The notes: a model not told the origin generated them from the letters alone. A stretch of DNA of 24,000 nucleotides from an uncultured Candidatus Woesearchaeota archaeon (GCA_963835585.1 CAWIGF010000003.1:217347-241346), one strand, 5' to 3'; shown: positions 1,003 to 23,588, numbered from the stretch's first letter. Translations and numbers: made by a program.

Positions 1003-1970
1003 CGCATCACCTTACTGATTGCTTCTATAATTCTTTCTTCATTAGGAAGGTAACTTGCCTCATTTTTGTACAATGGCATTATAGTATCGAATCCAGTGAC
1101 TCTTTTTACCGGTGCCTCTAACTCAAAAATTGCTTGTTCGTTGATTAATGCGCTTATTTCTGCTGCAACACCAAATGATCGTGGCGCTTCCTGCACTATT
1201 AGGCATCGTCCTGTTTTTTTGACTGAGTTTATGATTGTTTCAACATCCAATGGAGAAATTGTGCGTAAGTCAATAAGTTCTATGTCGTATTTGTCTTTTA
1301 TTTGATCAATTGCCTTTTGTGCAATCCACAACATTGCTCCGTATGCAATGACAGTTATATCTTTTCCTTCTTTGACGATTCTTGCCTTTCCTATTGGTAT
1401 TGTGTATGATTTTTCCGGAACTTCTTCCTTTATTGCTCTGTAAACTCTCTTCGGTTCCATGAAAATGACCGGATCGGGGTCTCGTATGGCGCTTGCCAGC
1501 AATCCTTTCGCCTCGTAAGGCGTTGCAGGAATTACGACCTTTATTCCGGGAATGTGGCCGTAATGGGCTTCAGGAGATTCTGAGTGATGTTCTAATGCTC
1601 GTATTCCTCCCGAATACGGGAATCGTATCACCAATGGGCATGTAAAATGCCCCCTGGATCTGTTTCGCAAACGTGCAACGTGATTGACAATCTGATTGAA
1701 CGCAGGATATGCAAATCCATCGAACTGAATTTCAGCGACTGGTTTCAATCCATATAACGCAAGCCCGATTGACGTTCCGACAATTCCTGATTCTGCCAAA
1801 GGTGTATCGATAACCCTGTTTTCCCCAAATTTCCTTACCAAACCATCCGTAACCCTGAATACGCCGCCATCAACACCAACATCTTCTCCAAGGATTATAA
1901 CATTTTTGTCTCTTTTCATTTCTTGCTCAAGCGCAAGGTTCAACGCCTCAACCATATTCATCTGTGCCAT
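999..1970 (-). CDS. 2-oxoacid (pyruvate/branched-chain) dehydrogenase E1 component beta subunit
   Basis: 323 aa. The N-terminus MAQMNMVEALNLALEQEMKRDKNVIILGEDVG..GGVFRVTDGL and the transketolase-like C-terminal region are typical of the E1beta family. 1-nt overlap with E1alpha (TAATG). Confidence 0.93.
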   Translation of the reverse strand: MAQMNMVEALNLALEQEMKRDKNVIILGEDVGVDGGVFRVTDGLVRKFGENRVIDTPLAESGIVGTSIGLALYGLKPVAEIQFDGFAYPAFNQIVNHVARLRNRSRGHFTCPLVIRFPYSGGIRALEHHSESPEAHYGHIPGIKVVIPATPYEAKGLLASAIRDPDPVIFMEPKRVYRAIKEEVPEKSYTIPIGKARIVKEGKDITVIAYGAMLWIAQKAIDQIKDKYDIELIDLRTISPLDVETIINSVKKTGRCLIVQEAPRSFGVAAEISALINEQAIFELEAPVKRVTGFDTIMPLYKNEASYLPNEERIIEAISKVMR

Positions 1971-3037: not shown

Positions 3038-3059
3038 ACGCCTCTTTGTAATGGAAATC

Positions 3060-3983
3060 TCATTTATTCTTTATAAGGCTATTGCTCGGTTTTAGTATGT
3101 TTTTGATGAACAATTCCCCTGCCTTGTATGAGCTTCTCACAAAAGGGCCTGATGCTACAAAAGCAAAACCAAATTTTTCTCCTTTTTTTCTGTAATCCTC
3201 AAAAACATCCGGATGTATGTATTCAACAAATGGAAGGTGTCGTTGGCTTGGCCTTAGATACTGGCCTATTGTGAATATGTTGACTCCTATTTTGAGCAGA
3301 TCTTTCATTGCTTGTTCTACTTCTTCTCTTGTCTCTCCCAGACCGACCATGATTCCTGATTTTGTTATGATGTTTTTATCGAGTTTTTTTACATTTTCAA
3401 GAACTGAAAGCGATTGCGCGTAGTTTGCACGGATATCTCTTGTCCTTCTTTGCAGTCGTTCAACAGTTTCTATGTTGTGGCTGATTACATCTGGCTTTGC
3501 ATCCGTGATATTTTTCAATAATTTGATGTCTCCATTAAAATCAGGGATGAGCACTTCAACAATCATATTGGGATTCCCTAGCTTTATTGCTCTTATGCAA
3601 TTCGCAAAATGAATGCTTCCTTGATCTTCCAAATCATCCCTGTCGACGGATGTCAGAACGACATAATCGAAGATTCCGATCTCTTTCAATGCTTTAACGA
3701 GCTTTTGTGGTTCTTCTTTGTCTATGTCCTCTCCTTTCGCAGCGGTTTTCACGTTGCAGAATCTGCAGCCTCTTGTGCACGTGTCCCCCAAAACCATGAA
3801 TGTTGCAGTTCCTCCTGACCAGCACTCGGAATTATTCGGGCAATGCCCCTCTGCGCAGATTGTTGTCAGCCTATATTTTTTTATGATTCTCTTGACATCA
3901 GAAAACTGATTTGTGGAAGGCTTTATTTTGAACCATTCGGGCTTGTGAGAAATTCCCTTGAAGACTACGTTGGTGTCTGTCAT
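3060..3983 (-). CDS. lipA: lipoyl synthase (radical SAM)
   Basis: 307 aa. CAEGHCPNNSECW plus the radical-SAM cluster CTRGCRFCNV, the two Cys triads diagnostic of LipA. Lies directly upstream of the lipoate-dependent E1/E2 genes. Confidence 0.95.
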   Translation of the reverse strand: MTDTNVVFKGISHKPEWFKIKPSTNQFSDVKRIIKKYRLTTICAEGHCPNNSECWSGGTATFMVLGDTCTRGCRFCNVKTAAKGEDIDKEEPQKLVKALKEIGIFDYVVLTSVDRDDLEDQGSIHFANCIRAIKLGNPNMIVEVLIPDFNGDIKLLKNITDAKPDVISHNIETVERLQRRTRDIRANYAQSLSVLENVKKLDKNIITKSGIMVGLGETREEVEQAMKDLLKIGVNIFTIGQYLRPSQRHLPFVEYIHPDVFEDYRKKGEKFGFAFVASGPFVRSSYKAGELFIKNILKPSNSLIKNK

Positions 3984-4006
3984 TTTTTTATTTTAAAAAT
4001 AAAAAT

Positions 4007-4306
4007 TTACTTCCCTGTTGCCCAGTCTTTCAACTTACCATATGGTGCGAAGCCGCAGATGAACTTTCCTGTTTTTTTGTTTACGAAGAAAGGAACTCCG
4101 TTGCATTTGCCTATTGATTCTTTTTGGAATTCTGCCTGGTTAGCCGCATTGTGCCAGCACTCTTTCTTTACAACTTTAACACCTATGTCTTTTTCGAGTT
4201 TTTCAATGTCAGGAGCCATCTGAACGCAGAAGTGGCATTCTGTTCCATAATACTCAACCAAATCCCCTTCGCTTGGTCCTTTTTCTGTTTTTTTTGCCGC
4301 TGCCAT
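4007..4306 (-). CDS. thioredoxin-fold CxxC protein (paralogue A)
   Basis: CHFC active-site motif, cis-Pro loop NGVPFF, about 40% identical by eye to ORF 10566-10832. The ORF track starts at TTG 4360 and an ATG lies at 4354. I prefer ATG 4306 because GGTGAT (SD-like) sits 3 nt upstream; the start is uncertain. Confidence 0.75.
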   Translation of the reverse strand: MAAAKKTEKGPSEGDLVEYYGTECHFCVQMAPDIEKLEKDIGVKVVKKECWHNAANQAEFQKESIGKCNGVPFFVNKKTGKFICGFAPYGKLKDWATGK

Positions 4307-4362
4307 ATGATCACCTATATTACGAATAGATGAAGGGTTTAAAATGTTTTTCATAAGCAAGC

Positions 4363-4370
4363 TTTAAAAA
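4363..4370. promoter_or_regulatory. TATA-like element (tttaaaaa) in divergent intergenic region
   Basis: Centre is about 27 nt upstream of ATG 4395 (MDAFFNPKTIAVIGAS). May also serve the minus-strand Trx/lipA/E1/E2 operon. Confidence 0.4.
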
Positions 4371-4394
4371 CACTGTTTGATGTATTTGTTCTTT

Positions 4395-5627
4395 ATGGAT
4401 GCATTCTTCAACCCAAAGACAATCGCAGTAATAGGCGCCTCTTCAAGTCCAAATAAAATAGGGAGGGTTGTGTTTGATACCTTGCTTAATTCAGGGAAAA
4501 AAGTTTATCCAATAAATCCAAATGCGGAATTGATTTCTGGAGTTAGATGCTATCCGAACCTAACTGCAATAGGCAAGGTCGACTTGATTGTCGTGGCTGT
4601 TCCTGTCCCTCAAACACTGGAAGTGATGGAAGAGGCAGGGAAAATAGGAATCAGGCATGCAGTGATCATAACGGCGGGATTCAAAGAGGAAGGAAATTAC
4701 GATGCAGACACTAAGCTTACTGAAATTTGCTCAAAATATAAGATAGACGTAATCGGTCCAAACTGTCTTGGCATAATTGACACGTATTCGGGTATTGATG
4801 CGGTATTCCTGCCACCAAACAGGCTGAAAAGGCCTAAAAAAGGAGGAATAAGCTTCATAACACAGTCTGGTGCAACAGGCTCTGCAATCCTTGACGTTCT
4901 TGGCTCATTGGGAGTTTCAAAGTTCATCAGCTACGGCAACGCCCTTAATCTCAATGAAACAGATTATCTGGAATATCTTGCGAAGGATAGATCGACGAAA
5001 ATAATCTGCATGTATGTGGAAGGGATCAAGGATGGACACAGATTTTTCAAAGTCTGCTCAAAAATAAAAAAACCAATTGTTGTGTTGAAAGGCGGGACTA
5101 CAAAGGAAGGAGGCAAGGCAACATTGTCCCATACAGGTTCGTTGGCAGGGGATGCTGAAATATATTCTGGAATCTTCAAGCAATTGAATATGATTGAAGC
5201 TTCAGGAATAAGGGAAATGCTCGGAGCCTTAGAGTTGCTGAACAAAAACATTAAAGGAAAAACAATTGGTGTCATTACCAATGGTGGCGGTTACGGAATT
5301 CTTACCGTGGATAATTTGATAAAAGCAGGGTTGCATTTCGCAGGCCTTGTTGATTTATTCGGGGACGCGAGCAATGAGTCTTATAAAAAGGCGATAAATG
5401 CAATGAAATCGGACATTATTATCTGTAATGTTCTGTTCCAAACTCCACTTCTAGACGAATCTCTTGTCGACATACTGATTGATGAGGCAAAAAAGAAGAA
5501 GCTTGTTGTCGTTTCAACAGGCTCTGAATATGTTGATGTATTGAAGCACAAACTTATTGCTAATGGTGTTTCTGTGTTCGACACTCCAGAAGAGGCGGTC
5601 GATGCGTTGCGGTTGGTCGTTGAATGA
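4395..5627 (+). CDS. CoA-binding protein, ADP-forming acyl-CoA synthetase (ACD) alpha-subunit-like
   Basis: N-terminal CoA-binding motif KTIAVIGASSSPNKIGR, SucD-like ligase domain with phospho-His loop LSHTGSLAG, then NGGGYGILTVD flavodoxin-like domain. Alternative starts at TTG 4377 and ATG 4380. No ATP-grasp beta subunit in the window. Confidence 0.8.
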   Translation: MDAFFNPKTIAVIGASSSPNKIGRVVFDTLLNSGKKVYPINPNAELISGVRCYPNLTAIGKVDLIVVAVPVPQTLEVMEEAGKIGIRHAVIITAGFKEEGNYDADTKLTEICSKYKIDVIGPNCLGIIDTYSGIDAVFLPPNRLKRPKKGGISFITQSGATGSAILDVLGSLGVSKFISYGNALNLNETDYLEYLAKDRSTKIICMYVEGIKDGHRFFKVCSKIKKPIVVLKGGTTKEGGKATLSHTGSLAGDAEIYSGIFKQLNMIEASGIREMLGALELLNKNIKGKTIGVITNGGGYGILTVDNLIKAGLHFAGLVDLFGDASNESYKKAINAMKSDIIICNVLFQTPLLDESLVDILIDEAKKKKLVVVSTGSEYVDVLKHKLIANGVSVFDTPEEAVDALRLVVE

Positions 5628-6163
5628 TTGAACGGATTGGGGCAATTCTTAGAGAACAAGAAATATTAAACGAACATGGAAACTTTTCAACAATAAGCAA
5701 GGAAACAGGAGTGCTTCTTTATGCTTTGGTTAAAATCAAAAATCCGAAAGCAGTCCTTGAAATCGGAACATCGATAGGTTATTCGAGCGTTTGGATTGCT
5801 TCTGCTTTTAAAAAAGGTTCAAAACTTATCTGCATAGACCGCTGGCCAGAGCGTTGTCACATTGCAAAGCAGTTTTTCAAGAAATCAAGATTGCCCATAA
5901 CATTAATGGAAGGAGATGCTTTGAAAATTATCCCACAACTTAAGCAGAAGTTCGATGCTGTTTTCCTCGATGCAACTAAATCAGAATACCTCAGATACTT
6001 GAAACTTCTGATAAATCACAATAAGCTAAATAGGAATGCGATGATTGTTGCGGACAATACAATTTCGCATGCAGACAAGATGCGTGATTTTCTCGAGTTC
6101 GCGAAGAAAAGAAAAGCTATGACTCTAAGTACAGGAAAGGGTATAACTATTTTTTCTGTTTGA
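5624..6163 (+). CDS. class I SAM-dependent O-methyltransferase (family 3 / caffeoyl-CoA OMT-like), short form
   Basis: 179 aa. SAM motif I VLEIGTSIGYS, downstream FDAVFLDATK and VADN typical of OMT family 3. ATGA overlap with the preceding gene. Confidence 0.72.
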   Translation: MIERIGAILREQEILNEHGNFSTISKETGVLLYALVKIKNPKAVLEIGTSIGYSSVWIASAFKKGSKLICIDRWPERCHIAKQFFKKSRLPITLMEGDALKIIPQLKQKFDAVFLDATKSEYLRYLKLLINHNKLNRNAMIVADNTISHADKMRDFLEFAKKRKAMTLSTGKGITIFSV

Positions 6164-6184
6164 GCACAAAAAATCTGAGTAAAG

Positions 6185-6193
6185 TTTATATAA
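6185..6193 (+). promoter_or_regulatory. TATA box (tttatataa)
   Basis: Centre is 26 nt upstream of ATG 6215, implying a leaderless transcript. Confidence 0.5.
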
Positions 6194-6214
6194 GGACTTT
6201 ATTTGGTTATTTGT

Positions 6215-7303
6215 ATGGCAAATATGGATATGTTTGACGAGGTAGGTCCTGAAAAGATTCTTGAGGTATATGATCCAAAGACAAAAGTGCATGGCTTCGT
6301 AGTTATAGATAATACGAAGCGGGGACCTGGCAAAGGCGGTATCCGAATGACGCCAACGGTATCCAGAGAAGAGGTTTTCAAATTGGCACGCACAATGACA
6401 TGGAAATCTGCCATGGCGGACTTGCCGTTCGGCGGTGCCAAGGCAGGAATCATCGCAAATCCTCATGCTATGAGCAGCAAGCAGAAACAAGATGTGGTAA
6501 GATCATTTGCTAAAGCGATTTCCTGCATTTCTCCTTCATTATATGTCGCAGCTCCGGACATTAATACTGCTGAACAAGATATGGAAACTATCGCAAAAGT
6601 TCTTGGCCCGAAATCATGCACTGGAAAACCTGCATACATGAAAGGACTGCCTCATGAACTTGGTTCAACAGGATTTGGTGTAGCTCATTCAACAAAAGTT
6701 GCATTGCAGTATCTAAATTTCAATCCAAAGACGACAACATTTGCAGTAGAAGGGTTCGGTAATGTTGGCTGGTTTGCAGCGAAACAACTCGTTGACATGG
6801 GATTAATACTAGTTGCAGTTTCTGATTCAAAGGGAGTTCTCTATAATAAAAATGGAATTGACTTCAAGAAGCTCGCAAAAGTTAAAAAGCAAACAGGCAG
6901 CGTAACAAACTACAGGCCAGGCAGCTTGCTTCCAACGCAAGATATCATAAATGTAAATGCGGACGTACTGGTTACTGCAGCGATTCCTGATTTGATACGA
7001 ATGGACAATTACAGTCGAGTAAAATCAAAGCTTGTCATTGAGGGTTCAAACATTCCCATGACGCAGGAAGTTGAACTTGCCTTGCATAAAAAAGGAATAC
7101 TTGTCGTTCCTGATTTCGTTGCAAACGCAGGTGGCGTAATTTCAAGCTACGTCGAATATATTGGCGGTTCCAAGAGGGAAATGTTTAAACTCGTTGATAA
7201 AAAAATAACAAAGAACACAAAAATAGTTCTTGATAGGGCAAAAAAAGAACGGGTTGCTCCGCGAACAGCCGCGATGAAGATAGCATTGGAAAGAATACAA
7301 TAG
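6215..7303 (+). CDS. Glu/Leu/Phe/Val dehydrogenase family protein, GDH-like, short form
   Basis: GPGKGGIRM, MTWKSAMADLPFGGAKAGI (catalytic Lys loop), Rossmann motif VEGFGNVG. The ORF track starts at TTG 6203; ATG 6215 fits the TATA spacing. Confidence 0.87.
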   Translation: MANMDMFDEVGPEKILEVYDPKTKVHGFVVIDNTKRGPGKGGIRMTPTVSREEVFKLARTMTWKSAMADLPFGGAKAGIIANPHAMSSKQKQDVVRSFAKAISCISPSLYVAAPDINTAEQDMETIAKVLGPKSCTGKPAYMKGLPHELGSTGFGVAHSTKVALQYLNFNPKTTTFAVEGFGNVGWFAAKQLVDMGLILVAVSDSKGVLYNKNGIDFKKLAKVKKQTGSVTNYRPGSLLPTQDIINVNADVLVTAAIPDLIRMDNYSRVKSKLVIEGSNIPMTQEVELALHKKGILVVPDFVANAGGVISSYVEYIGGSKREMFKLVDKKITKNTKIVLDRAKKERVAPRTAAMKIALERIQ

Positions 7304-10931: not shown

Positions 10932-12098
10932 ATGAGAATTCTTTTATCAAAAAAGTCAAGAAAATACTTGTTTGAGTTTTTGAAACAAAAATATGTAGTT
11001 GATACATTGCCATCTCTTTCTCATAAACTCAAAATTCCATATGATACTTTTAAGAAATGGGCATATGGCGATGTATACCTTCCGAGTTCCATAATCCCTT
11101 CTGAACTAACTGGATTGAAAGTTATTGATCAACGCGAGGAAGGTTGGGGTCGTAAAAAAGGAGCGTCAATAGGAGGAAAGAGAAATGTTGAAATCATGAA
11201 GCAGCGACTTGGCGAAAAGAGGTATTTTGAGGTCAGAAGCAAGCTCGGTACAAAAATAATGCATAGTCTGTGGAGGAAATACGGATCAAATCTGACTAAT
11301 CGTGCGATTAGTGCAAGAATTCGAATACGGGAACGGAGTGCTTCACAACTAGAGGAACAACACAGTTCATTCTTTACTAATCAGATCGTTACATTAAATA
11401 ATTCGACTATTTCATTTAGTAATGCAGACAAGAAGAAAAATATACAATTTCCAACCGAAATGACATCCGAACTTGCCGAGGAAATTGGAATTCATCTCGG
11501 GGATGGATGTATGTCTTACAATCGAAATTATTTCTCTGTGAAGTGCAATAAAAAAGAAGAAGACTATATGTGTGGTAGATTGTTTTATCTTTACAAAACT
11601 CTTTATGGTGTGAATCTTAATCTTATGAGACTGCCAAGTGTTTCTGGGTTTGAAATATATTCAAAAGCATTATGTGAATTCAAGAATAAAATTCTGGGTA
11701 TTCCTCGTGGCGAAAAAGTCGGACGCATTAGAGTTCCTTCTGTAGTACTCAAAACTAAAAACAAGAGCATATATTGCTCTTTTATTAGGGGACTCTTCGA
11801 TACGGATGGTTGTATTCACTTACGTTATGGAAAATATCCTGTTATATCTATTGGAATACATTCAGAGATACTAATGGCACAAGTTGGTGAGATGCTGAAG
11901 AAAATGGGATTTTTGCCAGCTGTGTATGATAAGGCAGTAATATTGAGTGGTTTCACCATGCTAAGAAAATGGTTAAAATACATAGGTTCAAATAATCCTG
12001 TCAAACTTAGGAAACTCAATTGGGCGAGTAGTTCAGTGGATAAAATTATCGGTTGCGGTCCGGTAGACCGGGGTTCGATTCCCCGCTCGCTCGTTTGA
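10932..12098 (+). CDS. free-standing double-motif LAGLIDADG homing endonuclease-like protein with N-terminal HTH-like region; 3' end reads through the tRNA gene
   Basis: Two LAGLIDADG-type motifs: LAEEIGIHLGDGCM (~11472-11510) and FIRGLFDTDGCI (~11781-11816). Family-typical C-terminus LRKWLKYIGSNNPVKLRKL. No stop until TGA 12096-12098, so the last ~25 codons are tRNA sequence. Confidence 0.85.
   Translation: MRILLSKKSRKYLFEFLKQKYVVDTLPSLSHKLKIPYDTFKKWAYGDVYLPSSIIPSELTGLKVIDQREEGWGRKKGASIGGKRNVEIMKQRLGEKRYFEVRSKLGTKIMHSLWRKYGSNLTNRAISARIRIRERSASQLEEQHSSFFTNQIVTLNNSTISFSNADKKKNIQFPTEMTSELAEEIGIHLGDGCMSYNRNYFSVKCNKKEEDYMCGRLFYLYKTLYGVNLNLMRLPSVSGFEIYSKALCEFKNKILGIPRGEKVGRIRVPSVVLKTKNKSIYCSFIRGLFDTDGCIHLRYGKYPVISIGIHSEILMAQVGEMLKKMGFLPAVYDKAVILSGFTMLRKWLKYIGSNNPVKLRKLNWASSSVDKIIGCGPVDRGSIPRSLV
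12022..12093 (+). tRNA. tRNA-Arg (anticodon GCG), no intron, no encoded CCA
   Basis: Hand fold. Acceptor GGGCGAG/CTCGCTC (one G-U). U8 A9. D-arm GTTC-AGTGGATA-AAAT (weak: 3 pairs plus a C/A mismatch). Anticodon stem ATCGG/CCGGT, loop TTGCGGT. Variable AGAC. T-arm CGGGG-TTCGATT-CCCCG. Discriminator G. Confidence 0.8.
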
Positions 12099-12134: not shown

Positions 12135-12641
12135 TTACATCTCGTCCATTTCTATCTTGAGAATATTTTCCTTCGCTTGTATTTCCTTAAATTTTTTGTC
12201 AAGCCTGAAGAAAGATTGTGAATCAATCTGCCTTTCGAGAATAGGGATTCCTTTGTTGATCATTGAGAAGACATGGGCCTTTACCGTCAATTCCGTGAGT
12301 CCTGTTCTCATAGAAATGTCCCCGTAACTAAGAGGGGTCTGCTCAACCGCATATAAAACCATGAACACTTGTTTTTCTGATTCCGTAAGGGAGAATTCCT
12401 TGTTCTGCGAGATCGCTTTAGATACCAAGAAGTGTATCTCATCAACCTGCTCCCTGAGTTTCTCGAGCTTCAACTCAATTTCATCAAGCTGCGATCCGTG
12501 ATTAGTGAGTTCATCTGTATTTTCATTTATGGAAGTCAAATGATCATCCATTTCGTCGCGAACAGCCTTGAATGCAGAACGAACGTGTCTATCGAGCTCA
12601 ACCAACTGAGACTCCTCTTTTTTACTTCTGAACATTACCAT
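12135..12641 (-). CDS. coiled-coil plus C-terminal winged-HTH putative transcription regulator
   Basis: The N-terminal half has heptad-like periodicity (LDEIELKLEKLREQVDEI). The C-terminal region QVFMVLYAVEQTPLSYGDISMRTGLTELTVKAHVFSMINKGIPILER looks like a MarR/TrmB-style wHTH. The ORF track starts at GTG 12659; ATG 12641 fits the TATA spacing. Divergent from the 992-aa surface gene. Confidence 0.55.
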   Translation of the reverse strand: MVMFRSKKEESQLVELDRHVRSAFKAVRDEMDDHLTSINENTDELTNHGSQLDEIELKLEKLREQVDEIHFLVSKAISQNKEFSLTESEKQVFMVLYAVEQTPLSYGDISMRTGLTELTVKAHVFSMINKGIPILERQIDSQSFFRLDKKFKEIQAKENILKIEMDEM

Positions 12642-12666
12642 CCCCACTGAGACAATCACAAATTCA

Positions 12667-12680
12667 TTTATAAATATTTA
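12667..12680 (-). promoter_or_regulatory. TATA box (tttataaatattta)
   Basis: About 27-30 nt upstream of ATG 12641 on the minus strand. Confidence 0.45.
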
Positions 12681-12793
12681 TGTAGTCAAGATATGATGAA
12701 AATAATCCAGTTTTTATACAAATGCAGTGACGAAATATGTTCAATTTACTATTTCTAAACTCAAATTTGTTATTTATAAGCAAATCATAAAGG

Positions 12794-12803
12794 ATATATA
12801 TTA
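12794..12803 (+). promoter_or_regulatory. TATA box (atatatatta) for 992-aa gene
   Basis: About 45 nt upstream of ATG 12843. GGGGGT (SD-like) lies at 12824-12829. Confidence 0.4.
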
Positions 12804-12842
12804 ATCGCCTGTTGAAATCTACAGGGGGTTATTGGGTACATT

Positions 12843-15821
12843 ATGGGGCGTTTAGATGATTTAAAAGAGAGGAAAATTTTTTCTTCAACAGATGTTTCAA
12901 TAATATCGACTTTTATCTTATGCCTTATTTTTATTTTCTTCCTTCATTTCGTTACGACTCTTCATAATTCAGTCGGGTCGATTCAGATTGCGACGGAAAA
13001 GGCAACAATAAATCTTCAAAGCATCAATAACATTCAAATTCCTGCACAGGTTGTTTTCTACGGAAACACGACATCCAATAATCCCAAAATCGGTGCTGTC
13101 GTGACGCCGAAAGAGACGCCTGTGCTTCAAATTTCTTTCTCGGGTGCAGATAAGGACTCGATCAAAAACTTGAGAATCGAAGACGTTCCCAAGACAATAC
13201 CAAAACTCGATGAAAAGCATGCCTGGGTTCAACTTTATGCCATAGATTCTACCGCAGTAAACTTCACAAACGCTACAGTGAATGTTGTCGCAAAAGGCAC
13301 AAATCTCTATAAGTGCAAGTCATGGAATTTCGATAACCAATCCTGCAGCGGCACATGGGTATTATTCAAGACAGGGCTTGTTCCAGGACAGAAATATGAA
13401 TTTGAGCTGAGTCACGATGATCCTGCATTCGCTGAGATTATTGTAGCGATAGATGCACAGCATCTGGATGAGAATTACACTTTCATTTCAGACATATATC
13501 CTGAAATCGAGGCAATTGACAATAATTGGAGCGAACCAATTTATGAAAATCAATATGTAAGAGTAACATACGCTGAGAATCTAACTAGTAGTAACTTTAT
13601 TGACTATGTCGCTCGCTCAAACACTTCCGCATACTTCGATGTGTATATTGCTGGAACTGATCAGAAAGTCGGTACGAGCGATATTGTCTCTGGATCCCAG
13701 CAATACATCAATATGAGCGGGCTTAACCAACCAGAAGACACATTTGACTTCAAGATACAGGATCCTAACGAATCAGATGCGAATCCATTCATACAATTCG
13801 ACTACATCCATGACCAAGCTCCCAACAATCTGACAGCAAACTCTGGCATTTATTTCGATGGTTTCGAAACCGGAACATTAGTAACAGATGGTTGGACGGT
13901 ATCAAGTGGATGGGAGCGTAACATTACGGCTCCTTACGCGGGAACATATGATGTAAGGGATAATACAACAGTAACCACTGCAGCATATCTCTACTTGAAT
14001 ATGAGCACAGCTTACTATCAGAACATAAATATCTCATTCTATGCCAATACAACAGGAACATCAGTTACGAAATACATGGCAGAGTGGTGGAATGGAAGTG
14101 TATGGGGAGTATTAATGAACACAACGCACCTGGCAACATATACTTATTATAACTATCTTCTTACCGCAAACAATTCAAACAACAATGCAAATTTCCGTTT
14201 GATGTTCAATTGCACCGTTAGTGCGACTGCTGGACGGGGATGCTATCTTGATAACGTCAACATATCAGGAACCACAATGGATCCTAATATTACAGGAGTG
14301 ATGAATTACAGTGTAACGAATCAAAGTGTCATGATAAACTGGACAACCTATCTCAATTCAAATACAACGCTGCGGTATGGAAACCAAAGCTCAAATCTGC
14401 TTAGATTTAACATATCTGTTAATGACAATGGGGCTGTGCACAATGTTTCTGTGTCAGGATTGATGAACGGCACAATTTATTTCTACAATGTGACATCATG
14501 TACTCCTGCAGGAGCATGCAACACGTCTGGAATCTATAATTTCACGACATTGCCATATAATATTCCTCAAGTCTTTGCTGTGCTACCAGTCAATGGCTCA
14601 ATATTCAACACCAGTAACATCATTACAATACAGGCAAATGTAACTGGTCCTTTACCGGTAAATACAGTCTACACAAATATCACGTTGTCAAATAAATCGA
14701 TAACGCAGCTCACTTTGCCGGAATACGGAACATCGCCACAATACAATGCCACTTACACGGCCCCCAACTTGCTTGGAACCTACAACGTCACTTTCATAGC
14801 TAATGACACATTAAACAACATCAACAACACCATAAAGACTAATTTCACCGTAAATGACATAATCCCTCCAGCAGTGTTTTCTGTACTTCCTATTAATGGT
14901 ACTATCTTCAACATAAGCAATGTTATCACAATACAGGCAAATGTGACTGATAATATAAACGTGTCAACAGTCTACACAAATATCACGTTGTCAAATAAAT
15001 CGATAACGCAGCTCACTTTGCCGGAATACGGAACATCGCCACAATACAATGCCACTTACACAATCCCTGCACTGTCTGGCCAGTACAATGTGACATTCAT
15101 AGGAAACGATTCATCTGGAAATGTTAATTCTTCAATAACCACTTACTTCACAGTTGCATCTAGTATTTCGATTACTATACTTTCTGTTAATGCTACCCCT
15201 AATCCTGTGCTACCAAGTCAATTGGTGAATATAACTGCAAATGTTACTGATGGTGTCACAATCGATACTGTTTGGTTCAATCTTAATCTTATCAACATTA
15301 CCATGAAGGGATGCGGCACAGGAATATATTGTAACGATACCATTAATGTCTCTTCTTTGTATGCTGGTATCTACAGTTATACGGTCTATGCCAACGATAC
15401 TTCAAGTAATACCGCAACTCCAATGACTTCAAATTTCACTATATCTGCTGTTGTTTCAGTGAATCTGTATAACCAATCAATTAATTTCTCATCGGGACAA
15501 GTAGGCCAGACACTAAATGCACAACCACTATATGGTTTCCCGATGGTTGTCCAAAACACAGGAAACATAAACATATCTGTCAACATCAGCGGAACAAATC
15601 TTTCAGGGGCAACAAGTGCACGAATCACACCTAACTATGTTGATTGGTCGAATGCATCTGGATTTACGTCACTTGCGAATCTCAGCTATGCGCAGCAATT
15701 GGTTAACCCTCTTATGATGCAGCTGCAGACTACGAACATCTTTTTCAGAATCAATGTCCCGTTGGGAATCCCAAGTCAGCAGTATACTGGAAACATTACC
15801 ATTGTCGCAGAATCGAAATGA
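12843..15821 (+). CDS. large N-terminally anchored, heavily N-glycosylatable surface protein with FN3-like and tandem Ig-like modules
   Basis: 992 aa. N-terminal hydrophobic anchor IISTFILCLIFIFFLHFV. FN3-like segment (VMINWTTYLNSNTTLRYG...HNVSVSGLMNGTIYFYNV). Three Ig-like modules sharing an (I/L)xANVT(D/G) signature. C-terminal beta-sandwich-like module shared with ORF 18548-19432. About 65-70 N-x-S/T sequons by hand count. Confidence 0.8.
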   Translation: MGRLDDLKERKIFSSTDVSIISTFILCLIFIFFLHFVTTLHNSVGSIQIATEKATINLQSINNIQIPAQVVFYGNTTSNNPKIGAVVTPKETPVLQISFSGADKDSIKNLRIEDVPKTIPKLDEKHAWVQLYAIDSTAVNFTNATVNVVAKGTNLYKCKSWNFDNQSCSGTWVLFKTGLVPGQKYEFELSHDDPAFAEIIVAIDAQHLDENYTFISDIYPEIEAIDNNWSEPIYENQYVRVTYAENLTSSNFIDYVARSNTSAYFDVYIAGTDQKVGTSDIVSGSQQYINMSGLNQPEDTFDFKIQDPNESDANPFIQFDYIHDQAPNNLTANSGIYFDGFETGTLVTDGWTVSSGWERNITAPYAGTYDVRDNTTVTTAAYLYLNMSTAYYQNINISFYANTTGTSVTKYMAEWWNGSVWGVLMNTTHLATYTYYNYLLTANNSNNNANFRLMFNCTVSATAGRGCYLDNVNISGTTMDPNITGVMNYSVTNQSVMINWTTYLNSNTTLRYGNQSSNLLRFNISVNDNGAVHNVSVSGLMNGTIYFYNVTSCTPAGACNTSGIYNFTTLPYNIPQVFAVLPVNGSIFNTSNIITIQANVTGPLPVNTVYTNITLSNKSITQLTLPEYGTSPQYNATYTAPNLLGTYNVTFIANDTLNNINNTIKTNFTVNDIIPPAVFSVLPINGTIFNISNVITIQANVTDNINVSTVYTNITLSNKSITQLTLPEYGTSPQYNATYTIPALSGQYNVTFIGNDSSGNVNSSITTYFTVASSISITILSVNATPNPVLPSQLVNITANVTDGVTIDTVWFNLNLINITMKGCGTGIYCNDTINVSSLYAGIYSYTVYANDTSSNTATPMTSNFTISAVVSVNLYNQSINFSSGQVGQTLNAQPLYGFPMVVQNTGNINISVNISGTNLSGATSARITPNYVDWSNASGFTSLANLSYAQQLVNPLMMQLQTTNIFFRINVPLGIPSQQYTGNITIVAESK
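14565..15170 (+). repeat. intragenic tandem duplication, 2 x 303 bp (101-aa Ig-like module)
   Basis: Unit 1 is 14565-14867 and unit 2 is 14868-15170. 14664-14758 and 14967-15061 are 95/95 identical (offset exactly 303 bp), while the flanks are only about 60-75% identical by eye. Confidence 0.9.
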
Positions 15822-17769
15822 TATTCTTGATGTAGTGCTTAAAGTCGATTTCGGCAGGAAGATTCGATTTCTTGAGGGATTCGAACAACTTCTTGAAATA
15901 CGTAATGTCATTATTCTCATATTTTGGCTCAAGAACGCTCCACATACTCTTCTGCGCCTCCATGTCAAATGCATGAGTTTTACGCCCAGAATATATCTTC
16001 GCTTTCTTTATTGTTGCTCCTTTGAACTGCAATCTGCACTCATCATTTTTGAAGAGATCTATGAATTTGCAATCATTTGATTTTACAACAAAGATATATT
16101 TGCTTCCACTCTGTAGCATGAGAGGCCCAGAACTCAAGGATTTCTTGAAAAAGTCTCTAACATTTCCCTTGAAAACCGAGAAGTCAAATCTTTTGTTTGA
16201 ATATATGAGCTCGCTCTTTTCAGGGGACATATCGAAATCAACAACAGCCATAATTTGTGTTATTTCCTTCCCAGATAGCCACAATCTATTCTTAATATTG
16301 ATTGAATTTTTATCGAGAGTGATGGACAGAGGAGAATTAATTTGGGGAAAGAAAAATTTATTCGCAAACCCGAACAACGTCTTTAACATATACAATATGA
16401 TGATTATTCCAAGTATGATTGCGATGAATATACCAATGTATGTAACAGTCTTGGAAGAGAAGGAAGGAAGTATGGTAATTGATTGTTGTGCTGCGGCTAC
16501 CTGTGTAACGTTGTTATTATCAACGTAAGCCACCGTCGCCCTGATTACATATTCCCCGTTTAAATTTGCTGGTATCTGCAGTGTTCTAACGACGCTGGCG
16601 CTTGTCTCTACGGCTAATGTAGTGATATCGCTGACAAGTAGCTTTGATAAATCTTGACTCCACAACCTAACAGTCAACTGTACATCAACTTCTTTTGCTC
16701 CTCCTAGGTTGTATAGCTCTATGGTTACTGGAAGGTCGTTGCCTGCCTGGATATTTTCATTGATTTGGCCTAGTTGTATGTCAAGTAGTTTTTGTCCATA
16801 ATTAACAACGTCAATCGTCACAGGGACTGTTGTCATCATGTTGCCCAATGCTATCTCTATATTTCCGCTATATTTTCCGATTGGTGTATTGGGCTCAGTA
16901 TTAATTATTATATTGATATTATTCGATTCTCCGGGGCCGAGTGTGAAATCGGTCGTTTCAAAGCTTATGAATTGCGCAATATTTCCTGTGACACTTACCT
17001 TAACCTCTGTTTCCGTTGCGAGGGTGTTTGTTATGCTTATTTCAGATGTTTCGTGTTCATTTTGATATGCCTCAATAGTTAGAGGCACAGAAACAATGCT
17101 CTGAACTTCTTGCATTGTTTGGTTTATTGCGGTCTCAACAGCTGTGGCAACTATGCCCGCACTCGTTCCGCCACCAGTACTGCTCGGTGGCAAAGAAGGA
17201 GATGGGGGCAGTCCGAAAATACCGAATATGCTAAGGTGCGTTGTGTTGGCCCAAACATATTCATCAATAGTATCAACTCCCCCCTCCGGCGGATTAAATA
17301 CGGTCCACGTCTGACTACTATCATTGAAATACTCTAGCCTTAGAGAACCCTCGTCTAAATTTAATGCATTTACGGCGGCTTTCGAATAAAATACCTTTAC
17401 AATTACATCAGTTATGTTATCCACATTTTCGCTAAAATTTACATATTTTCCATAAGGTAGAAGGAAGTAATCGGATGTGTTTGTAGGATTGCTCGCATAG
17501 AATGAAGTATTCACTACAGCAAGCTGCGAACTTGACGTTGATACTGTTGCTTCCACTCCATAATCAGAGCCACCAATAGTTCCAGAATAATTAGAGCCAA
17601 TAGCTCCGGAACCAGATGAGGAATTGAGATTGAAAGCAAGAGAAGGAAATACACTTACTGAGCTTACTAAGGCCAAGGATAGAGATTCATTAGTGTCGCC
17701 ATAAGCTGCAACAAAAAATAGACACGATATTATCAGAATACTAAGGCACAGTTTCTTGTTCATGTTCAT
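15796..17769 (-). CDS. type-I membrane surface protein: signal peptide, PGF-pre-PGF-like and CARDB/NEW3-like beta-sandwich modules, TM helix, ~200-aa cytoplasmic domain of unknown function
   Basis: The ORF track starts at 17856. I prefer ATG 17769 (MNMNKKLCLSILIISCLFFVAAYG is a signal peptide), which cuts the overlap with the upstream gene to 29 nt. EGSLRLEYFNDSSQTWTVF...HLSIFGIFG resembles the archaeal PGF-pre-PGF domain. PSPSLPPSS linker. ELYNLGGAKEVDV is CARDB-like. TM helix YIGIFIAIILGIIIILYML. Confidence 0.75.
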   Translation of the reverse strand: MNMNKKLCLSILIISCLFFVAAYGDTNESLSLALVSSVSVFPSLAFNLNSSSGSGAIGSNYSGTIGGSDYGVEATVSTSSSQLAVVNTSFYASNPTNTSDYFLLPYGKYVNFSENVDNITDVIVKVFYSKAAVNALNLDEGSLRLEYFNDSSQTWTVFNPPEGGVDTIDEYVWANTTHLSIFGIFGLPPSPSLPPSSTGGGTSAGIVATAVETAINQTMQEVQSIVSVPLTIEAYQNEHETSEISITNTLATETEVKVSVTGNIAQFISFETTDFTLGPGESNNINIIINTEPNTPIGKYSGNIEIALGNMMTTVPVTIDVVNYGQKLLDIQLGQINENIQAGNDLPVTIELYNLGGAKEVDVQLTVRLWSQDLSKLLVSDITTLAVETSASVVRTLQIPANLNGEYVIRATVAYVDNNNVTQVAAAQQSITILPSFSSKTVTYIGIFIAIILGIIIILYMLKTLFGFANKFFFPQINSPLSITLDKNSINIKNRLWLSGKEITQIMAVVDFDMSPEKSELIYSNKRFDFSVFKGNVRDFFKKSLSSGPLMLQSGSKYIFVVKSNDCKFIDLFKNDECRLQFKGATIKKAKIYSGRKTHAFDMEAQKSMWSVLEPKYENNDITYFKKLFESLKKSNLPAEIDFKHYIKNIISILRQW

Positions 17770-18502
17770 TTGTATTTTCGCTCTTTTTCTTTTTAAATCT
17801 ATCCCTGGTTTTTCGTTTAATCCATGATGAGAATCCATGCTGCTTGATCTTTTCATATTCCTTTATCATCCTTTTCTTCTTCTGTCTAATATAGCGCATG
17901 ATTCTGTTCATCCGTATTCCTATATAGAATACGATTGTAAGGGCCATTAGGAAGAACAGTTCATTAAGCCACTTGTTTTGTTCATAGAATTTATCAATTG
18001 TCCTGGAAATCCAGTTGACTATTCCTTTTATGCCGCTGAATATCCCATTGAGTATTCTGTTTATGAAAGACGGTGGGTACTTGTAATCTATTTGTATGGA
18101 TCTGGTTACTTCCTCTATTATGTTGAATGTTCCTTTGTTTCCGCTAGCAACAGACGTGCTTATATCGAGACTGTATGTTCCGGGCGTAATTCCAGTAGAA
18201 TTGACACTTATTATCACATCGGCTATACCATCTTCGGCTGGGTTCCCTCTATGAATGACGGCAAGTGGCGGATTAATGGTCATTGTTTGCGGATATGCCG
18301 ATGCTCTGTGCCCCAAATCACCACCAAAAGAAACGCTATATTCGCTTGTTTGTCCATCATTATTTATGATAGAAATGCTTATGCTGAAATTTTGTCCGAT
18401 TGTCGCGTTGAATGTCTTTGAGGGGGGAATTGCCATGCCTACAGCAAACGCGCTGCTTGCAAGAATGAGAAGAAGTAATGGGATGGTTATGATTTTCTTC
18501 AT
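17741..18502 (-). CDS. type-I membrane protein: signal peptide, one Ig-like ectodomain, TM helix, highly basic cytoplasmic tail
   Basis: 253 aa. MKKIITIPLLLLILASSAFA signal peptide. Beta-sandwich-like pattern (GQNFSISISIINN...TPGTYSLDISTS). TM helix LFFLMALTIVFYIGI. Tail RYIRQKKKRMIKEYEKIK...RKTRDRFKKKK. Confidence 0.7.
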   Translation of the reverse strand: MKKIITIPLLLLILASSAFAVGMAIPPSKTFNATIGQNFSISISIINNDGQTSEYSVSFGGDLGHRASAYPQTMTINPPLAVIHRGNPAEDGIADVIISVNSTGITPGTYSLDISTSVASGNKGTFNIIEEVTRSIQIDYKYPPSFINRILNGIFSGIKGIVNWISRTIDKFYEQNKWLNELFFLMALTIVFYIGIRMNRIMRYIRQKKKRMIKEYEKIKQHGFSSWIKRKTRDRFKKKKSENTNEHEQETVP

Positions 18503-18547
18503 AAATTTGAAAGAAAAAGTGGGAATAAAAACCTGTCGGTTTCAGGC
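18503..18547 (-). promoter_or_regulatory. intergenic hairpin plus T-tracts (attenuator or internal promoter)
   Basis: Minus strand: gCCTGaaaccgaCAGGtttttattcccactttttc directly follows the stop of the 294-aa gene. The TTTTTATT element is also centred about 27 nt upstream of ATG 18502, so its role is ambiguous. Confidence 0.3.
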
Positions 18548-19432
18548 TTATCCCTGAATATTAAATGTCATATTTCCAGTATAGTTTTGTTGCGATATTC
18601 CATTTGGCGTGGAGATGTAAAAGTATACTTTCTGAACGCTTCCTCCTGTTACTCCGTTTGCGATAGTTGCAGGAGCTGCAGATGGAAGTGCAATCTTTCC
18701 GCCTGCTGATCCAACTCCAGTATCAGTTATATTGAACGTTACATTTCCAGGACCTATGGCTTGGGCAGGCGTTGTCTGGCCAACCAAACTCGTTCCGTTG
18801 ACGCTGTAGTTCGCTGGAATATTACCTGTATTGTTAAGAAGAAGTGGGAAACCATTTACCGTTCCGTAGTAGATCCCAGCTACTGCCGTTCCATTCTCTG
18901 CTCTTTGCGCAGTCTGACCGACTGTTTGGTTACCGAAGCTGATTGGAGCGTTTCCTAGTGCCGTCGAGAGAACGCTGCTGACAGTGAATGATGTTGCATT
19001 TACCACAGTAGCTATGCCATCACTAAATGTTATATTTACAGTCCATGTCCCTGCTGCCGCTGTACTTGGCAATGTGTATGTATTGTTCGAAAAGATTGCA
19101 CCAGTCAGGCTGGTTCCACTAGCTAAGCTGAGGTTTGTGGGTCCACCCTGTGCTGCTCCTGTCGTATTGTAATAAATTATACTTGCTGTAATTGTATCGC
19201 TGTTATTATCAGTGATGTTCGCTAGAAACGTGAGTGTATTTCCTGGACTCGCAGGATTTGGTGTTACATTTGCATATACAAGAACAGGAGGAGTATTAGT
19301 GATAAACACAGTCATAGTTGTGTTCAAGTATTGTGTTGTTGCAAAACCAACGCCAAGCAATGCTATGCTCGCAATCACAAGAAATACGAATAAAACTAGA
19401 TTACCTCTTGCAACAGTATGTCTTTCGTCCAT
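18548..19432 (-). CDS. secreted/anchored surface subunit with pilin-like N-terminus, Ig-like module and shared C-terminal module
   Basis: 294 aa. N-terminus MDERHTVARG-NLVLFVFLVIASIALLGVG (charged, then R-G, then a hydrophobic stretch). Module with LANITD signature. The last 147 aa are homologous to the C-terminus of the 992-aa protein (GFPLLLNNTGNI vs GFPMVVQNTGNI; SQQNYTGNMTF vs SQQYTGNITI). About 18 sequons. Confidence 0.72.
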   Translation of the reverse strand: MDERHTVARGNLVLFVFLVIASIALLGVGFATTQYLNTTMTVFITNTPPVLVYANVTPNPASPGNTLTFLANITDNNSDTITASIIYYNTTGAAQGGPTNLSLASGTSLTGAIFSNNTYTLPSTAAAGTWTVNITFSDGIATVVNATSFTVSSVLSTALGNAPISFGNQTVGQTAQRAENGTAVAGIYYGTVNGFPLLLNNTGNIPANYSVNGTSLVGQTTPAQAIGPGNVTFNITDTGVGSAGGKIALPSAAPATIANGVTGGSVQKVYFYISTPNGISQQNYTGNMTFNIQG

Positions 19433-19464
19433 CTACCCTCTTTGCTTTTTAGTTTGAAGTCTGA

Positions 19465-19472
19465 TTTATATA
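19465..19472 (-). promoter_or_regulatory. TATA box (tttatata) for 294-aa gene
   Basis: About 36 nt upstream of ATG 19432. AGAGGGT (SD-like) lies directly upstream of the ATG. Confidence 0.45.
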
Positions 19473-20377: not shown

Positions 20378-20872
20378 TTAGCTTAAATCTTCTTGTTTAT
20401 TTCTTTGTGTTGAAGCTATTTTTTCGTTTTTTATCAATTTCTGCAGTTCCTGAACATACTTCATTGATGTTTCAAGATGGTTATTGATTTTCTGCACTGC
20501 CTTCTCAAACGAGCTTTCCAAAGTGTTTCCGTTGAGCTTATACCCGATTATAACCTTTCCCTCATTGATATAGGACGTTTTGGTGATAAGATCAAGTTCT
20601 ATCCATCTTTTAAGGTAATCATACATAGTTTGCCTAGTGATTCCTGCGTGAATCCCCATCTCCTCTACAGTCATCACAGAAGCTTCCGGGTGTTTCTCTC
20701 GCTGCGCAAGCTTCATTTTCTCATACAGCTCAATAAGTACGTTGTGCATTTTGTCCGTTGCACCCTCTTTCCTTGGCATTAGTCCCATCCTGTGCATTAT
20801 CACTTTTGTGAGCTCCTCAGCAGTGGGATTCATGCTTGGTTCGTGATCTGAGATGATTATTTTTGCTGGCAT
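20378..20872 (-). CDS. winged-HTH DNA-binding protein (164 aa), putative regulator
   Basis: MTVEEMGIHAGITRQTMYDYLKRWIELDLITK is an HTH plus wing. The C-terminal helical tail is charged. AGAGGT (SD-like) lies 5 nt upstream of the ATG. Confidence 0.6.
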   Translation of the reverse strand: MPAKIIISDHEPSMNPTAEELTKVIMHRMGLMPRKEGATDKMHNVLIELYEKMKLAQREKHPEASVMTVEEMGIHAGITRQTMYDYLKRWIELDLITKTSYINEGKVIIGYKLNGNTLESSFEKAVQKINNHLETSMKYVQELQKLIKNEKIASTQRNKQEDLS

Positions 20873-21757: not shown

Positions 21758-21774
21758 ATTCCGACCATAACTAA

Positions 21775-21786
21775 CTTATATTTAAA
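21775..21786 (-). promoter_or_regulatory. TATA box (cttatatttaaa)
   Basis: About 26 nt upstream of ATG 21757. The same 12-mer occurs at 22790-22801. Confidence 0.5.
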
Positions 21787-21810
21787 TCTTAAAGAAAAAG
21801 TGAGAGTTTG

Positions 21811-22771: not shown

Positions 22772-22789
22772 TCACCAGACAAAACCAAG

Positions 22790-22801
22790 CTTATATTTAA
22801 A
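22790..22801 (-). promoter_or_regulatory. TATA box (cttatatttaaa)
   Basis: About 26 nt upstream of ATG 22771. Confidence 0.5.
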
Positions 22802-22817
22802 GTTTATTAGGTAGAAA

Positions 22818-23588
22818 TTACCTCATTCTCCATTTGACAACGTCTTTATATGGAAGATTTCCGCCGAATATATCAAGAGCGCTCCCGATGGTGAAATCTA
22901 TCTTTTCTTTCCCGAACTCGTGGATCGTTTTGAGGTCATCAAAAGAAGATATGCCTCCGGCGTATGTTAGTGGTTTGCTAATAGAGGAGTTGCTTATCCA
23001 AGAGCCTAATTTTGCTACTAAATCTTTTTGGATCCCTTGGCATTTGCCCTCAACATCTGCTGCATGGATCAGGAATTCCGAGCAATAACTTGCCAGCCTG
23101 TCAAGATTAGAATCATTTATTTGAAAGTCTGTGAATTTCTGCCATCTGTCTGTCACGACAAAGTAAATCCCATCTTTTTCCCTGCAGCCCAAGTCAAGGA
23201 CGAGCCTATCCTTACCGATAGTAGAGACTAATCTATCTAGATTCTCGAAATTTATCTTGCCGTCCTTGAATATATAGGACGTGACGATGACGTGGCTCGC
23301 GCCGGCATCAAGGAACTTATTTGCGTTCTCTGCATCGATTCCTCCTCCAATCTGGAGCCCATTTTTGTATGCACGCAGAGCCTTCAATGCCTCTTCCTCA
23401 TTCCCAGGACCAAGCATAATTACATGCCCTCCTGTCAGATTGTCTCGTTTGTACATATCTGCAAAATACGCAGCATCTTTATTTGATACAAAGTTCTCAA
23501 TAAGTTTTTTAGAACTGTTTTCAAGCGTACTACCAACTATCTGTTTGACTTTTCCTTCATGGATATCTATGCATGGCCTGAATTTCAT
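22818..23588 (-). CDS. hisA: ProFAR isomerase, eukaryotic-type HisA (His6-like)
   Basis: 256 aa. MKFRPCIDIHEGKVKQIVGSTL, GGHVIMLGPGN, EFLIHAADVEGKCQGI and LDIFGGNL line up with yeast His6 blocks as I remember them (CIDLHNGEVKQIVGGTL, EFLIHAADVEGLCGGI, LDIFGGNL). Confidence 0.88.
   Translation of the reverse strand: MKFRPCIDIHEGKVKQIVGSTLENSSKKLIENFVSNKDAAYFADMYKRDNLTGGHVIMLGPGNEEEALKALRAYKNGLQIGGGIDAENANKFLDAGASHVIVTSYIFKDGKINFENLDRLVSTIGKDRLVLDLGCREKDGIYFVVTDRWQKFTDFQINDSNLDRLASYCSEFLIHAADVEGKCQGIQKDLVAKLGSWISNSSISKPLTYAGGISSFDDLKTIHEFGKEKIDFTIGSALDIFGGNLPYKDVVKWRMR

Follow-up and report, generated by a model that had tools for sequence, protein, structure and literature searches.

In a 24,000-nt stretch of Candidatus Woesearchaeota DNA (referred to below as the window; positions are counted from its first letter, and its G+C content is about 39%), we have found four neighbouring genes, called a to d, whose products are predicted from sequence to make up a dedicated surface glycoprotein module with four components in a small-genome archaeon of the Woesearchaeota type (DPANN). 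The module is probably an attachment device, and the reading that we favour, if tentatively, is a membrane-tethered surface adhesion complex that would be held together by the docking of beta-strands. To our knowledge, the ways in which DPANN archaea grip their hosts or other surfaces are largely unknown, and no structure has been solved for their envelope or adhesion proteins. The present analysis provides a concrete and conserved four-gene unit with a family signature, which consists of a C-terminal head, an orphan N-terminal strand, an anchor of the c type and an apparently novel cytoplasmic domain; this unit can be sought in genomes, in cryo-electron tomography of Woesearchaeota and in metaproteomes, or modelled as complexes.

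Gene set and shared head module

Listing and translation of the open reading frames (ORFs) place gene a, which encodes a giant surface glycoprotein of 992 aa, at 12843–15821 on the plus strand. The other three genes are on the minus strand: gene b (18548–19432) encodes a small secreted glycoprotein of 294 aa, and genes c (17741–18502, 253 aa) and d (15796–17769, 657 aa) encode type-I membrane proteins. The ORF of d reaches 686 aa from an upstream ATG, and the length of 657 aa is that of the public gene call P0010. Genes b and c are separated by a gap of 45 nt, c and d overlap by 29 nt, and the convergent genes a and d overlap by 26 nt. The four genes with their sizes, topologies and spacing had been described in an earlier note on this DNA, and ORF calls, translation and a hydropathy scan have borne out all of them. 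Sequons for N-glycosylation number 69 in a (7.0 per 100 aa) and 18 in b (6.1 per 100 aa); c has 3 of them and d has 11.

The C-terminal part of the giant is related to the small protein. Residues 783–986 of a align with residues 55–289 of b at 28% identity, and because the BLASTP E-value is 8e-14 we regard the immunoglobulin (Ig)-like plus C-terminal-domain (CTD) module common to both, which the earlier note had already recognised, as real and not a chance resemblance. In a, this homologous module occupies aa 783–992 (nt 15189–15818), with a domain independent E-value (iE) of 9e-59 for the family hidden Markov model (HMM). When a family profile built from b and the a head was searched against 1.84 billion representative proteins (clusters at 50% identity), 371 matches were obtained at E ≤ 1e-3, of which 74 reached E ≤ 1e-10. 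The module lies no more than 12 residues from the C-terminus in 71 of the 73 listed matches that reach the profile end, and the listed family members include 35 proteins of up to 320 aa, 20 of 321–700 aa and 16 longer ones of up to 2506 aa; the pairing of a giant with a small protein through a common C-terminal module, noted at first for a and b, holds across the family.

Family scans covered, with Pfam, all window ORFs of at least 150 aa and several shorter ones and, with NCBIfam, a–d and four neighbouring proteins. Proteins a, b, c and d gave zero matches above the cut-off in Pfam, NCBIfam, PHROGs and PADLOC, and a description of the family or of the cluster was found in no curated library or paper. 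For the b family, neither Pfam nor NCBIfam gave a match above the cut-off and PDB sequence profiles gave no meaningful one; its Ig domain has a weak MG2-type Pfam similarity in 10 of 23 members (best E 2.2e-6). A word-indexed search with a broad b alignment returned 13 proteins only, and the nearest named homologue of b comes from a Candidatus Woesearchaeota metagenome-assembled genome.

Outside the window, the a–b–c–d set is present in at least seven further contigs, among which the identity of b falls to about 35–40% and the flanking contexts vary. Three Woesearchaeota-like contigs (L001, L003 and L004), whose b proteins are 52–56% identical to that of the window, have b, c and d in this order, with the a-like gene convergent; their upstream neighbour is a Hef helicase gene, and the window has small hypothetical genes instead. 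In more distant loci (L007, L009, L012 and the contig of P0160), all genes share a strand and follow each other as a-like, b-like, c-like and d-like, where the L007 contig ends inside the c-like gene and the P0160 contig was judged by gene sizes alone; the four proteins of L009 have 2488, 485, 371 and 773 aa, respectively. Pattern-based locus scans gave a single locus in the genome collection, which is identical to L001, and none in the viral scan and both metagenome scans. With locally built HMMs, exactly one b-like and one a-like head-bearing ORF were found per locus in eight loci (the window, L001, L003, L004, L007, L009, L010 and L012), with a c-like ORF directly after b and a d-like gene wherever the contig reaches that far. 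The earlier note had proposed a dedicated surface gene set, and a synteny search has found a–d together in L001, L003, L004, L007, L009, L010, L012 and the contig of P0160, although neighbours and gene orders differ; this distribution indicates that all four genes are inherited together. In L010, an AbiEi-type antitoxin gene, a partner gene and three small ORFs (4291–5665) have been inserted between the a-like gene and b–c–d.

The giant has a single N-terminal hydrophobic segment (aa 20–38), which was found by the hydropathy scan and is designated here as a signal-anchor; large a-like proteins have such an anchor as a conserved feature. The N-termini of a-like proteins have a charged stretch followed by a long hydrophobic segment, with no small-x-small (AxA-type) cleavage site, and the giant looks N-terminally membrane-anchored and not like a free tip adhesin. 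A conserved first domain (aa ~23–227) is kept in the a-like proteins of L007 and L009 (iE 3e-20 and 4e-20, respectively). It is followed by a variable middle with a jelly-roll (aa ~335–480), an FN3-like domain (aa 492–569) and two tandem Ig repeats, to which sub-threshold FN3 and Big matches of Pfam correspond. The two Ig repeats form a tandem 303-nt duplication at 14570–15114 on the plus strand (copies 14570–14811 and 14873–15114, 79% nucleotide identity), which suggests a recent change in the stalk length of a. Among relatives, a-like proteins range from about 400 to 2500 aa, and their inserts include SGNH/SASA-like and LamG-like sequence in L003 (read by eye) and matches to CBM96, disaggregatase, GH43 and BNR in L009 and L010. 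As a side observation, a domain with the pattern 'YKC..WNF....C..W' and a cysteine motif 'CGDG.CNG.E....C..DC' recur in a-like and d-like ectodomains across loci, namely, in the d-like proteins of L001, L003, L004, L009, L010 and L012 and in aa ~122–202 of the window a; the window d does not have the latter motif and carries a Pro/Ser/Gly linker in its place.

This variability of the giant bears on the view that the cluster encodes an S-layer or coat, in which a and/or b would form a glycoprotein lattice or canopy on c and d as SlaB-like stalks, serving as an ordinary envelope. Multi-Ig, heavily glycosylated and unannotated secreted proteins beside Ig proteins with a C-terminal transmembrane (TM) segment are indeed reminiscent of SlaA/SlaB and of the candidate DPANN S-layer and anchor proteins of Nanobdella (MJ1_0160 and MJ1_0707; doi 10.1101/2023.10.27.564410), and a, with about 1000 aa, is similar in size to the Nanobdella candidates. 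Among curated S-layer models (SLH, PACE-CTERM S-layer and others), the best match was that of c to the putative S-layer NCBIfam model NF033506, at 15.5 bits against a cut-off of 110, and similarity to a known S-layer family was not found. However, the great variation in the length and domains of a-like proteins, with enzyme-like and lectin-like inserts, is atypical for lattice proteins, the N-terminal anchor of a and a small paralogue with an orphan strand are further differences, and the family is patchy (371 clusters in the 1.8 billion proteins searched), not universal in the lineage. We therefore regard an S-layer as unlikely.

N-terminal region of the small protein

Protein b is predicted to be exported by Sec and to have a conserved cleavage site of the signal-peptidase-I type. 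Its signal peptide (aa 1–31, with GFA at 29–31) was assigned by the alignment of homologues. The earlier note had emphasised a charged-RG-hydrophobic N-terminus, and this stretch (...ARG|NLVLFVF...) is present in the window b, where it superficially resembles the class III signal of a type IV pilin-like protein whose prepilin peptidase and assembly ATPase would be encoded elsewhere. In homologues, however, RG is replaced by SF, EH, EL, TL or EA, while GFA is invariant; a small-x-small site (GFA|T and AxA-like variants) is kept after the hydrophobic region across the b family, and distant members carry classical AxA-type signal peptides. Because of these three features, b should be considered a substrate of signal peptidase I and not a class III pilin. 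In addition, mature b would have no hydrophobic N-terminal helix if cut at GFA, and no ATPase, TadC-like protein or peptidase was found in the scanned window ORFs or in any related locus. The class III signal is ruled out by the homologue alignment and effectively refuted, and we consider a type IV pilin-like system to be highly improbable. PGF-CTERM, LPXTG, SLH, archaellin, secretion ATPase and prepilin peptidase, which the earlier note had not seen either, were all absent from the scanned window ORFs (in Pfam, and in NCBIfam for a–d and the four neighbours).

The most conserved stretch of b directly follows GFA and has the form x-M-T-V-F-I-T-N-T-A/P-P-x-V, in which T38, M40, V42, I44, N46, T47 and P49 are invariant in the alignment of close homologues; the family-wide form is T-x-x-x-V-x-x-x-N-x-A-P. 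We call this segment (TTQYLNTTMTVFITNTPP; aa ~32–49, nt 19286–19339, minus strand), which was delimited by the alignment and AlphaFold models, the orphan strand with its NxAP linker. A pattern [hydrophobic]-x-[hydrophobic]-x-N/D-x-x-P-x-V occurs once per 88–92 residues in giant tandem-Ig proteins matched by the profile, and the same NxAP pattern is found at Ig-to-Ig junctions within extended b-like proteins, where it represents the last strand of a domain and the linker to the next one. In b-like proteins, the orphan strand and NxAP lie 8–15 residues past the signal-peptide cleavage site with no domain ahead, and the N-terminal segment of b resembles the final strand of an Ig repeat whose domain ahead of it is missing. 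The motif was found in all six extended b-like proteins (380–500 aa, with 2–3 Ig domains) and is absent from all a-like proteins. Judging from these sequences, a and b would present the same head module on different N-terminal devices: a has a signal-anchor for this purpose, and b has an orphan strand.

AlphaFold models of b were made with an alignment of 10 sequences, which gave a predicted local distance difference test score (pLDDT) of 70, and with one of 41 sequences, which gave a pLDDT of 89.4 and a predicted template modelling score of 0.73. The latter model consists of a signal helix (2–24), a region without secondary structure (25–48), a seven-strand Ig domain (49–150, the MG2-like domain) and a second sandwich (156–292, within the CTD of aa 156–294); the segment 32–49 is unpaired and without secondary structure in both monomer models. 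A low-confidence loop was found at about 171–190, and the invariant sequons N168-Q-T and N180-G-T were assigned there. The structural check that the earlier note had suggested was run for b, and this confident two-sandwich model had no specific match to known pilins. A Foldseek search of the model against PDB gave generic tandem sandwiches only (RbmA, complement MG domains and the Gram-positive basal pilin EbpB), with NPC2, RhoGDI, GM2-activator and Wzt-CBD-type sandwiches for the second domain (target TM-score ≤ 0.55), and none of the TasA, AbpA, thread and cannula (CanA) chains was among the top 50 matches; matches of the fold in BFVD were likewise generic, and none was specific.

These properties of b have to be weighed for another possibility, i.e., that b serves as the major subunit in a pilus that is Sec-dependent and not of type IV, and inserts its orphan strand into the head of the next subunit. 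In such a fibre, a, which has an acceptor head and no donor strand, would be a membrane-anchored base or nucleator or an adhesin, and c and d would anchor it or assist its assembly. The fibre would then add one more class to the donor-strand pili of archaea, next to the threads of Saci_0406/0405 (PMC9715654), the TasA-like archaeal bundling pili (ABP) of AbpA/AbpB (PMC9245690), the Tafi pili of TafA/E, TafC and TafF (PMC12337348) and the cannulae (doi 10.1101/2024.12.30.630787). As in thread and ABP pilins (PMC9715654, PMC9245690), a conserved strand-like segment stands right after the site for processing of the signal peptidase I type (predicted for b) and is unpaired in the monomer model, and in b it has the character of an Ig terminal strand and linker with no preceding domain. 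Other likenesses are a beta-sandwich subunit, dense N-glycosylation like that of threads, and a locus that has no ATPase and contains, besides a larger protein with the fold of the subunit, beta-sandwich proteins with a single TM segment for which an anchoring role is proposed, as is also the case in Tafi-type loci (PMC12337348). The pLDDT-89 model, with its generic Foldseek matches, speaks against a fibre, however, and so do the lack of a TasA/peptidase_M73 match in Pfam, a missing-strand groove that is not evident from the secondary structure of b, and the extended b-like proteins, which are unusual for a repeating pilin. Moreover, b differs from the known pilins in having two full sandwiches and in giving no sequence or fold match to them, no dedicated signal peptidase (TafD, SipW) is nearby, and the large protein a seems to be N-terminally anchored. 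We consider the pilus possible but doubtful.

Two-domain adhesins of the chaperone-usher type (FimH and PapG) have a variable N-terminal receptor-binding part and, without a donor strand, a C-terminal pilin-like domain that they have in common with the major subunit. The a-like proteins, which have no orphan strand and yet carry the acceptor-like module, are comparable to such two-domain tip or anchor proteins in that the head shared with b comes without a donor strand, and the d sandwiches are weakly PapD-like and of the ASH type (Cep192_D6, E 1e-3). Unlike chaperone-usher systems, no usher and no outer membrane are present, the d matches are far under the Pfam cut-offs, and a has an N-terminal anchor. 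An extended form of the fibre, which we rate as somewhat more doubtful still, would be an ATPase-free strand-exchange DPANN fibre of b, rooted or capped by an exchangeable giant with lectin or enzyme payloads for host contact and coupled inward via the domain of about 195 aa in d.

Expression signals around b have also been counted in favour of a fibre. A putative promoter TATATAAAT (TATA box, 19464–19472) and a putative ribosome-binding site GAGGGT (Shine-Dalgarno, 19435–19440), both read from the minus strand, are located 32–40 and 3–8 nt upstream of the b ATG, respectively, and the b–c intergenic region (18503–18547, minus strand) has a hairpin (RNA fold −13.5 kcal/mol, z −1.96) and, behind it, two oligo-T runs. 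The hairpin may, on weak evidence, act as a partial terminator that sets the ratio of b to c and d; the promoter-like signals, the hairpin with oligo-T and the c/d overlap would fit an output of b above that of c and d, which is only suggestive. Apart from this, repeated intergenic motifs occur upstream of minus-strand genes, at 21763–21791 and 22778–22806 and at 18502–18524 and 21783–21805 (...TTTAAATATAAG... and ...CACTTTTTCTTT... in the minus-strand reading), and probably represent common promoter (TATA) elements and T-rich terminators.

Membrane partners and the favoured complex

According to hydropathy and alignment, c is composed of a signal peptide, a sandwich (aa ~22–140), a YPPSF motif, an amphipathic segment, a TM segment (aa 178–196, nt 17915–17971) and a basic tail with GFxxW...FKKK. 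It is 42–50% identical among close relatives, and its sandwich begins with G-x-A-x-P-P. In d, a signal peptide, a variable N-domain and the Pro/Ser/Gly linker are followed by two CARDB/NEW3/PapD-like sandwiches (aa ~230–425), a TM segment (aa 444–462, nt 16384–16440) and a cytoplasmic domain, as read from hydropathy and from Pfam matches to Cep192_D6, CARDB and TRAP_beta, all of which are sub-threshold. The residues past the TM segment number 55 in c and 195 in d. For the c sandwich and the first of the two in d, hhalign gave an alignment with a probability of 67% (E 5e-5), and c and d can be described as predicted type-I membrane proteins with related membrane-proximal beta-sandwiches. A relationship of c to the b family was not convincing (hhalign probability 22%). 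The c family gave no meaningful match to PDB sequence profiles, and a word-indexed protein search with d returned d alone. Sequons amount to 0.8–2.3 per 100 aa in c ectodomains versus 4.6–6.8 in b, and this scarcity in c, compared with the sequon-rich a and b, fits a protein-protein interface near the membrane.

The cytoplasmic domain of d (nt 15799–16383, about 195 aa) has a mostly beta-strand-like pattern and a C-terminal ...NIISILR helix, both judged by eye. It is kept in L001, L003 and L004 at 32–37% identity with 33 invariant columns, and it gave no Pfam match at E ≤ 1 and no PDB sequence match at E ≤ 10; it may represent a new membrane-proximal domain. The motifs 'FFK..L.SGP' and '...NIISILR' of this domain are present in all three related loci.

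In the adhesion complex that we favour, the shared head would be held away from the membrane in two ways, by the long anchored stalk of a itself and by the orphan strand of b. The latter would dock, through beta-strand addition, on the c sandwich with its few sequons and/or on d, or else on the head of a further a or b molecule. Target specificity would come from the variable middle of a-like proteins, which is lectin-, esterase- or glycosidase-like in relatives, and the cytoplasmic domain of d, where present, would connect the complex to the cell interior.

The logic of such a complex would be similar to that of WxL/Csc, although built from unrelated archaeal parts. The WxL/Csc clusters of Lactobacillales and Bacillales encode two WxL proteins, one small and one large, together with WxLIP (DUF916-DUF3324-TM) (PMC10599100, PMC1534035); the small and the large protein have a common C-terminal domain, into which an Ig-like single-pass membrane protein inserts a strand (PMC10599100). 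Likewise, the small secreted protein shares here with the large, multi-domain one a domain that is always C-terminal, and their genes adjoin those for single-pass membrane proteins with Ig-like ectodomains (signal peptide, sandwiches and C-terminal TM segment in c and d). In both systems, the binding domains of the large protein are variable, the genes are inherited as a cluster, and assembly is proposed to occur via a strand entering a beta-sandwich. In contrast to WxL/Csc, a and b gave no match to the WxL domain (PF13731, with two W-x-L motifs) at E ≤ 1, nor did 23 family members at E ≤ 0.1, and no DUF916 or DUF3324 match was found in c, d or their homologues. Because the archaeal host has no peptidoglycan, its proteins cannot be anchored by wall binding. 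Further differences are an extra Ig domain and the N-terminal orphan strand in b, the N-terminal signal-anchor in a, the presence of two membrane partners, one of them with a cytoplasmic domain, and heavy N-glycosylation. If the strand docking is true, a WxL-like or pilus-like logic would have arisen independently in archaea. In kind, the cluster would be another surface adhesion or anchoring cluster of generic sandwiches, of which the family and the cluster themselves appear to be new.

One other archaeal system was compared. The putative secretion system associated with arCOG01314 comprises a MoxR ATPase, a vWA protein and DUF4350/pfam07760 membrane proteins (PMC5898192); none of its domains was found in the window or in related loci, and since the gene content differs this candidate was rejected.

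Several points weigh against the adhesion complex. Its adhesive function is read from domain types alone. By sequence pattern, c has a complete-looking seven-strand sandwich, and because both b sandwiches look complete in the monomer model, judging from their secondary structure, no acceptor groove is evident in b either. The d-like proteins of L010 and L012 have a short basic tail in place of the cytoplasmic domain, which is therefore not essential to the core. The gene set is not arranged uniformly: L008 (70% G+C) has two tandem b paralogues without c or d, and in L011 b-like and c-like genes alternate in a differing arrangement. With ten loci in all, the synteny statistics are thin. Concerning L011, we add that a c-like protein encoded at 1783–2997 has three sandwiches and a near-threshold PGF-CTERM match (IPGF...KSRR; 15.8 bits against 18.8), so that the membrane partner in this locus may be lipid-anchored by archaeosortase, a signature absent from a–d of the window; the b-like proteins of L011 are nearly sequon-free (none and one).

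Genomic surroundings of the cluster

A gene for a coiled-coil protein with a weak winged helix-turn-helix (wHTH; sub-threshold HTH matches only) is located at 12135–12659 on the minus strand, divergent from a. The earlier note had included it in the cluster, and its position is as described there; its membership was not supported, since no homologue stands beside the cluster in the other loci. Neither this gene nor the other window neighbours have a counterpart in any related locus, and the conserved core therefore consists of a, b, c and d only.

The surroundings have also been considered for the possibility that the cluster is cargo of a mobile element or virus (e.g., glycoproteins for viral attachment or fusion) that became integrated at the neighbouring tRNA-Arg gene. 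This gene lies 40 nt from the cluster edge, and the cluster has numerous small hypothetical genes, as well as wHTH genes, on its flanks. Against this, no integrase and no tRNA-derived direct (att-like) repeat was found, a–d gave no PHROG or PADLOC matches, there are no relatives in IMG/VR, and the fold matches in BFVD are generic. The cluster of relatives, moreover, adjoins the genes of Hef, PCNA and malic enzyme, or those of FtsZ and ribosomal protein L11. In view of the absence of att-like tRNA repeats and viral matches, an element integrated at tRNA-Arg is effectively excluded, and we assign cargo of this type only a very slight probability.

The tRNA-Arg(GCG) gene at 12021–12094 on the plus strand is itself read through by a free-standing LAGLIDADG-type ORF of 388 aa (10932–12098, plus strand; PF14528 E 2e-8 and intein-like NCBIfam matches). 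Because the last ~26 codons of this ORF are tRNA sequence, either its end is spurious or two genes overlap. Two genes upstream of b, a 164-aa protein with weak wHTH matches (HTH_Crp_2 E 1.5e-3; PADLOC Csa3 E 7e-4) is encoded at 20378–20872 on the minus strand, with no homologue in the related loci. The other genes of the window include those for an ATP-dependent DNA ligase, the alpha and beta subunits of pyruvate dehydrogenase E1, a lipoyl-synthase-like radical SAM protein, an ADP-forming acyl-CoA synthetase and glutamate dehydrogenase. The metabolic genes at 999–7303 and 22818–23588, among them a lone gene of the HisA/HisF family, represent an unusually rich set for a DPANN-type genome.

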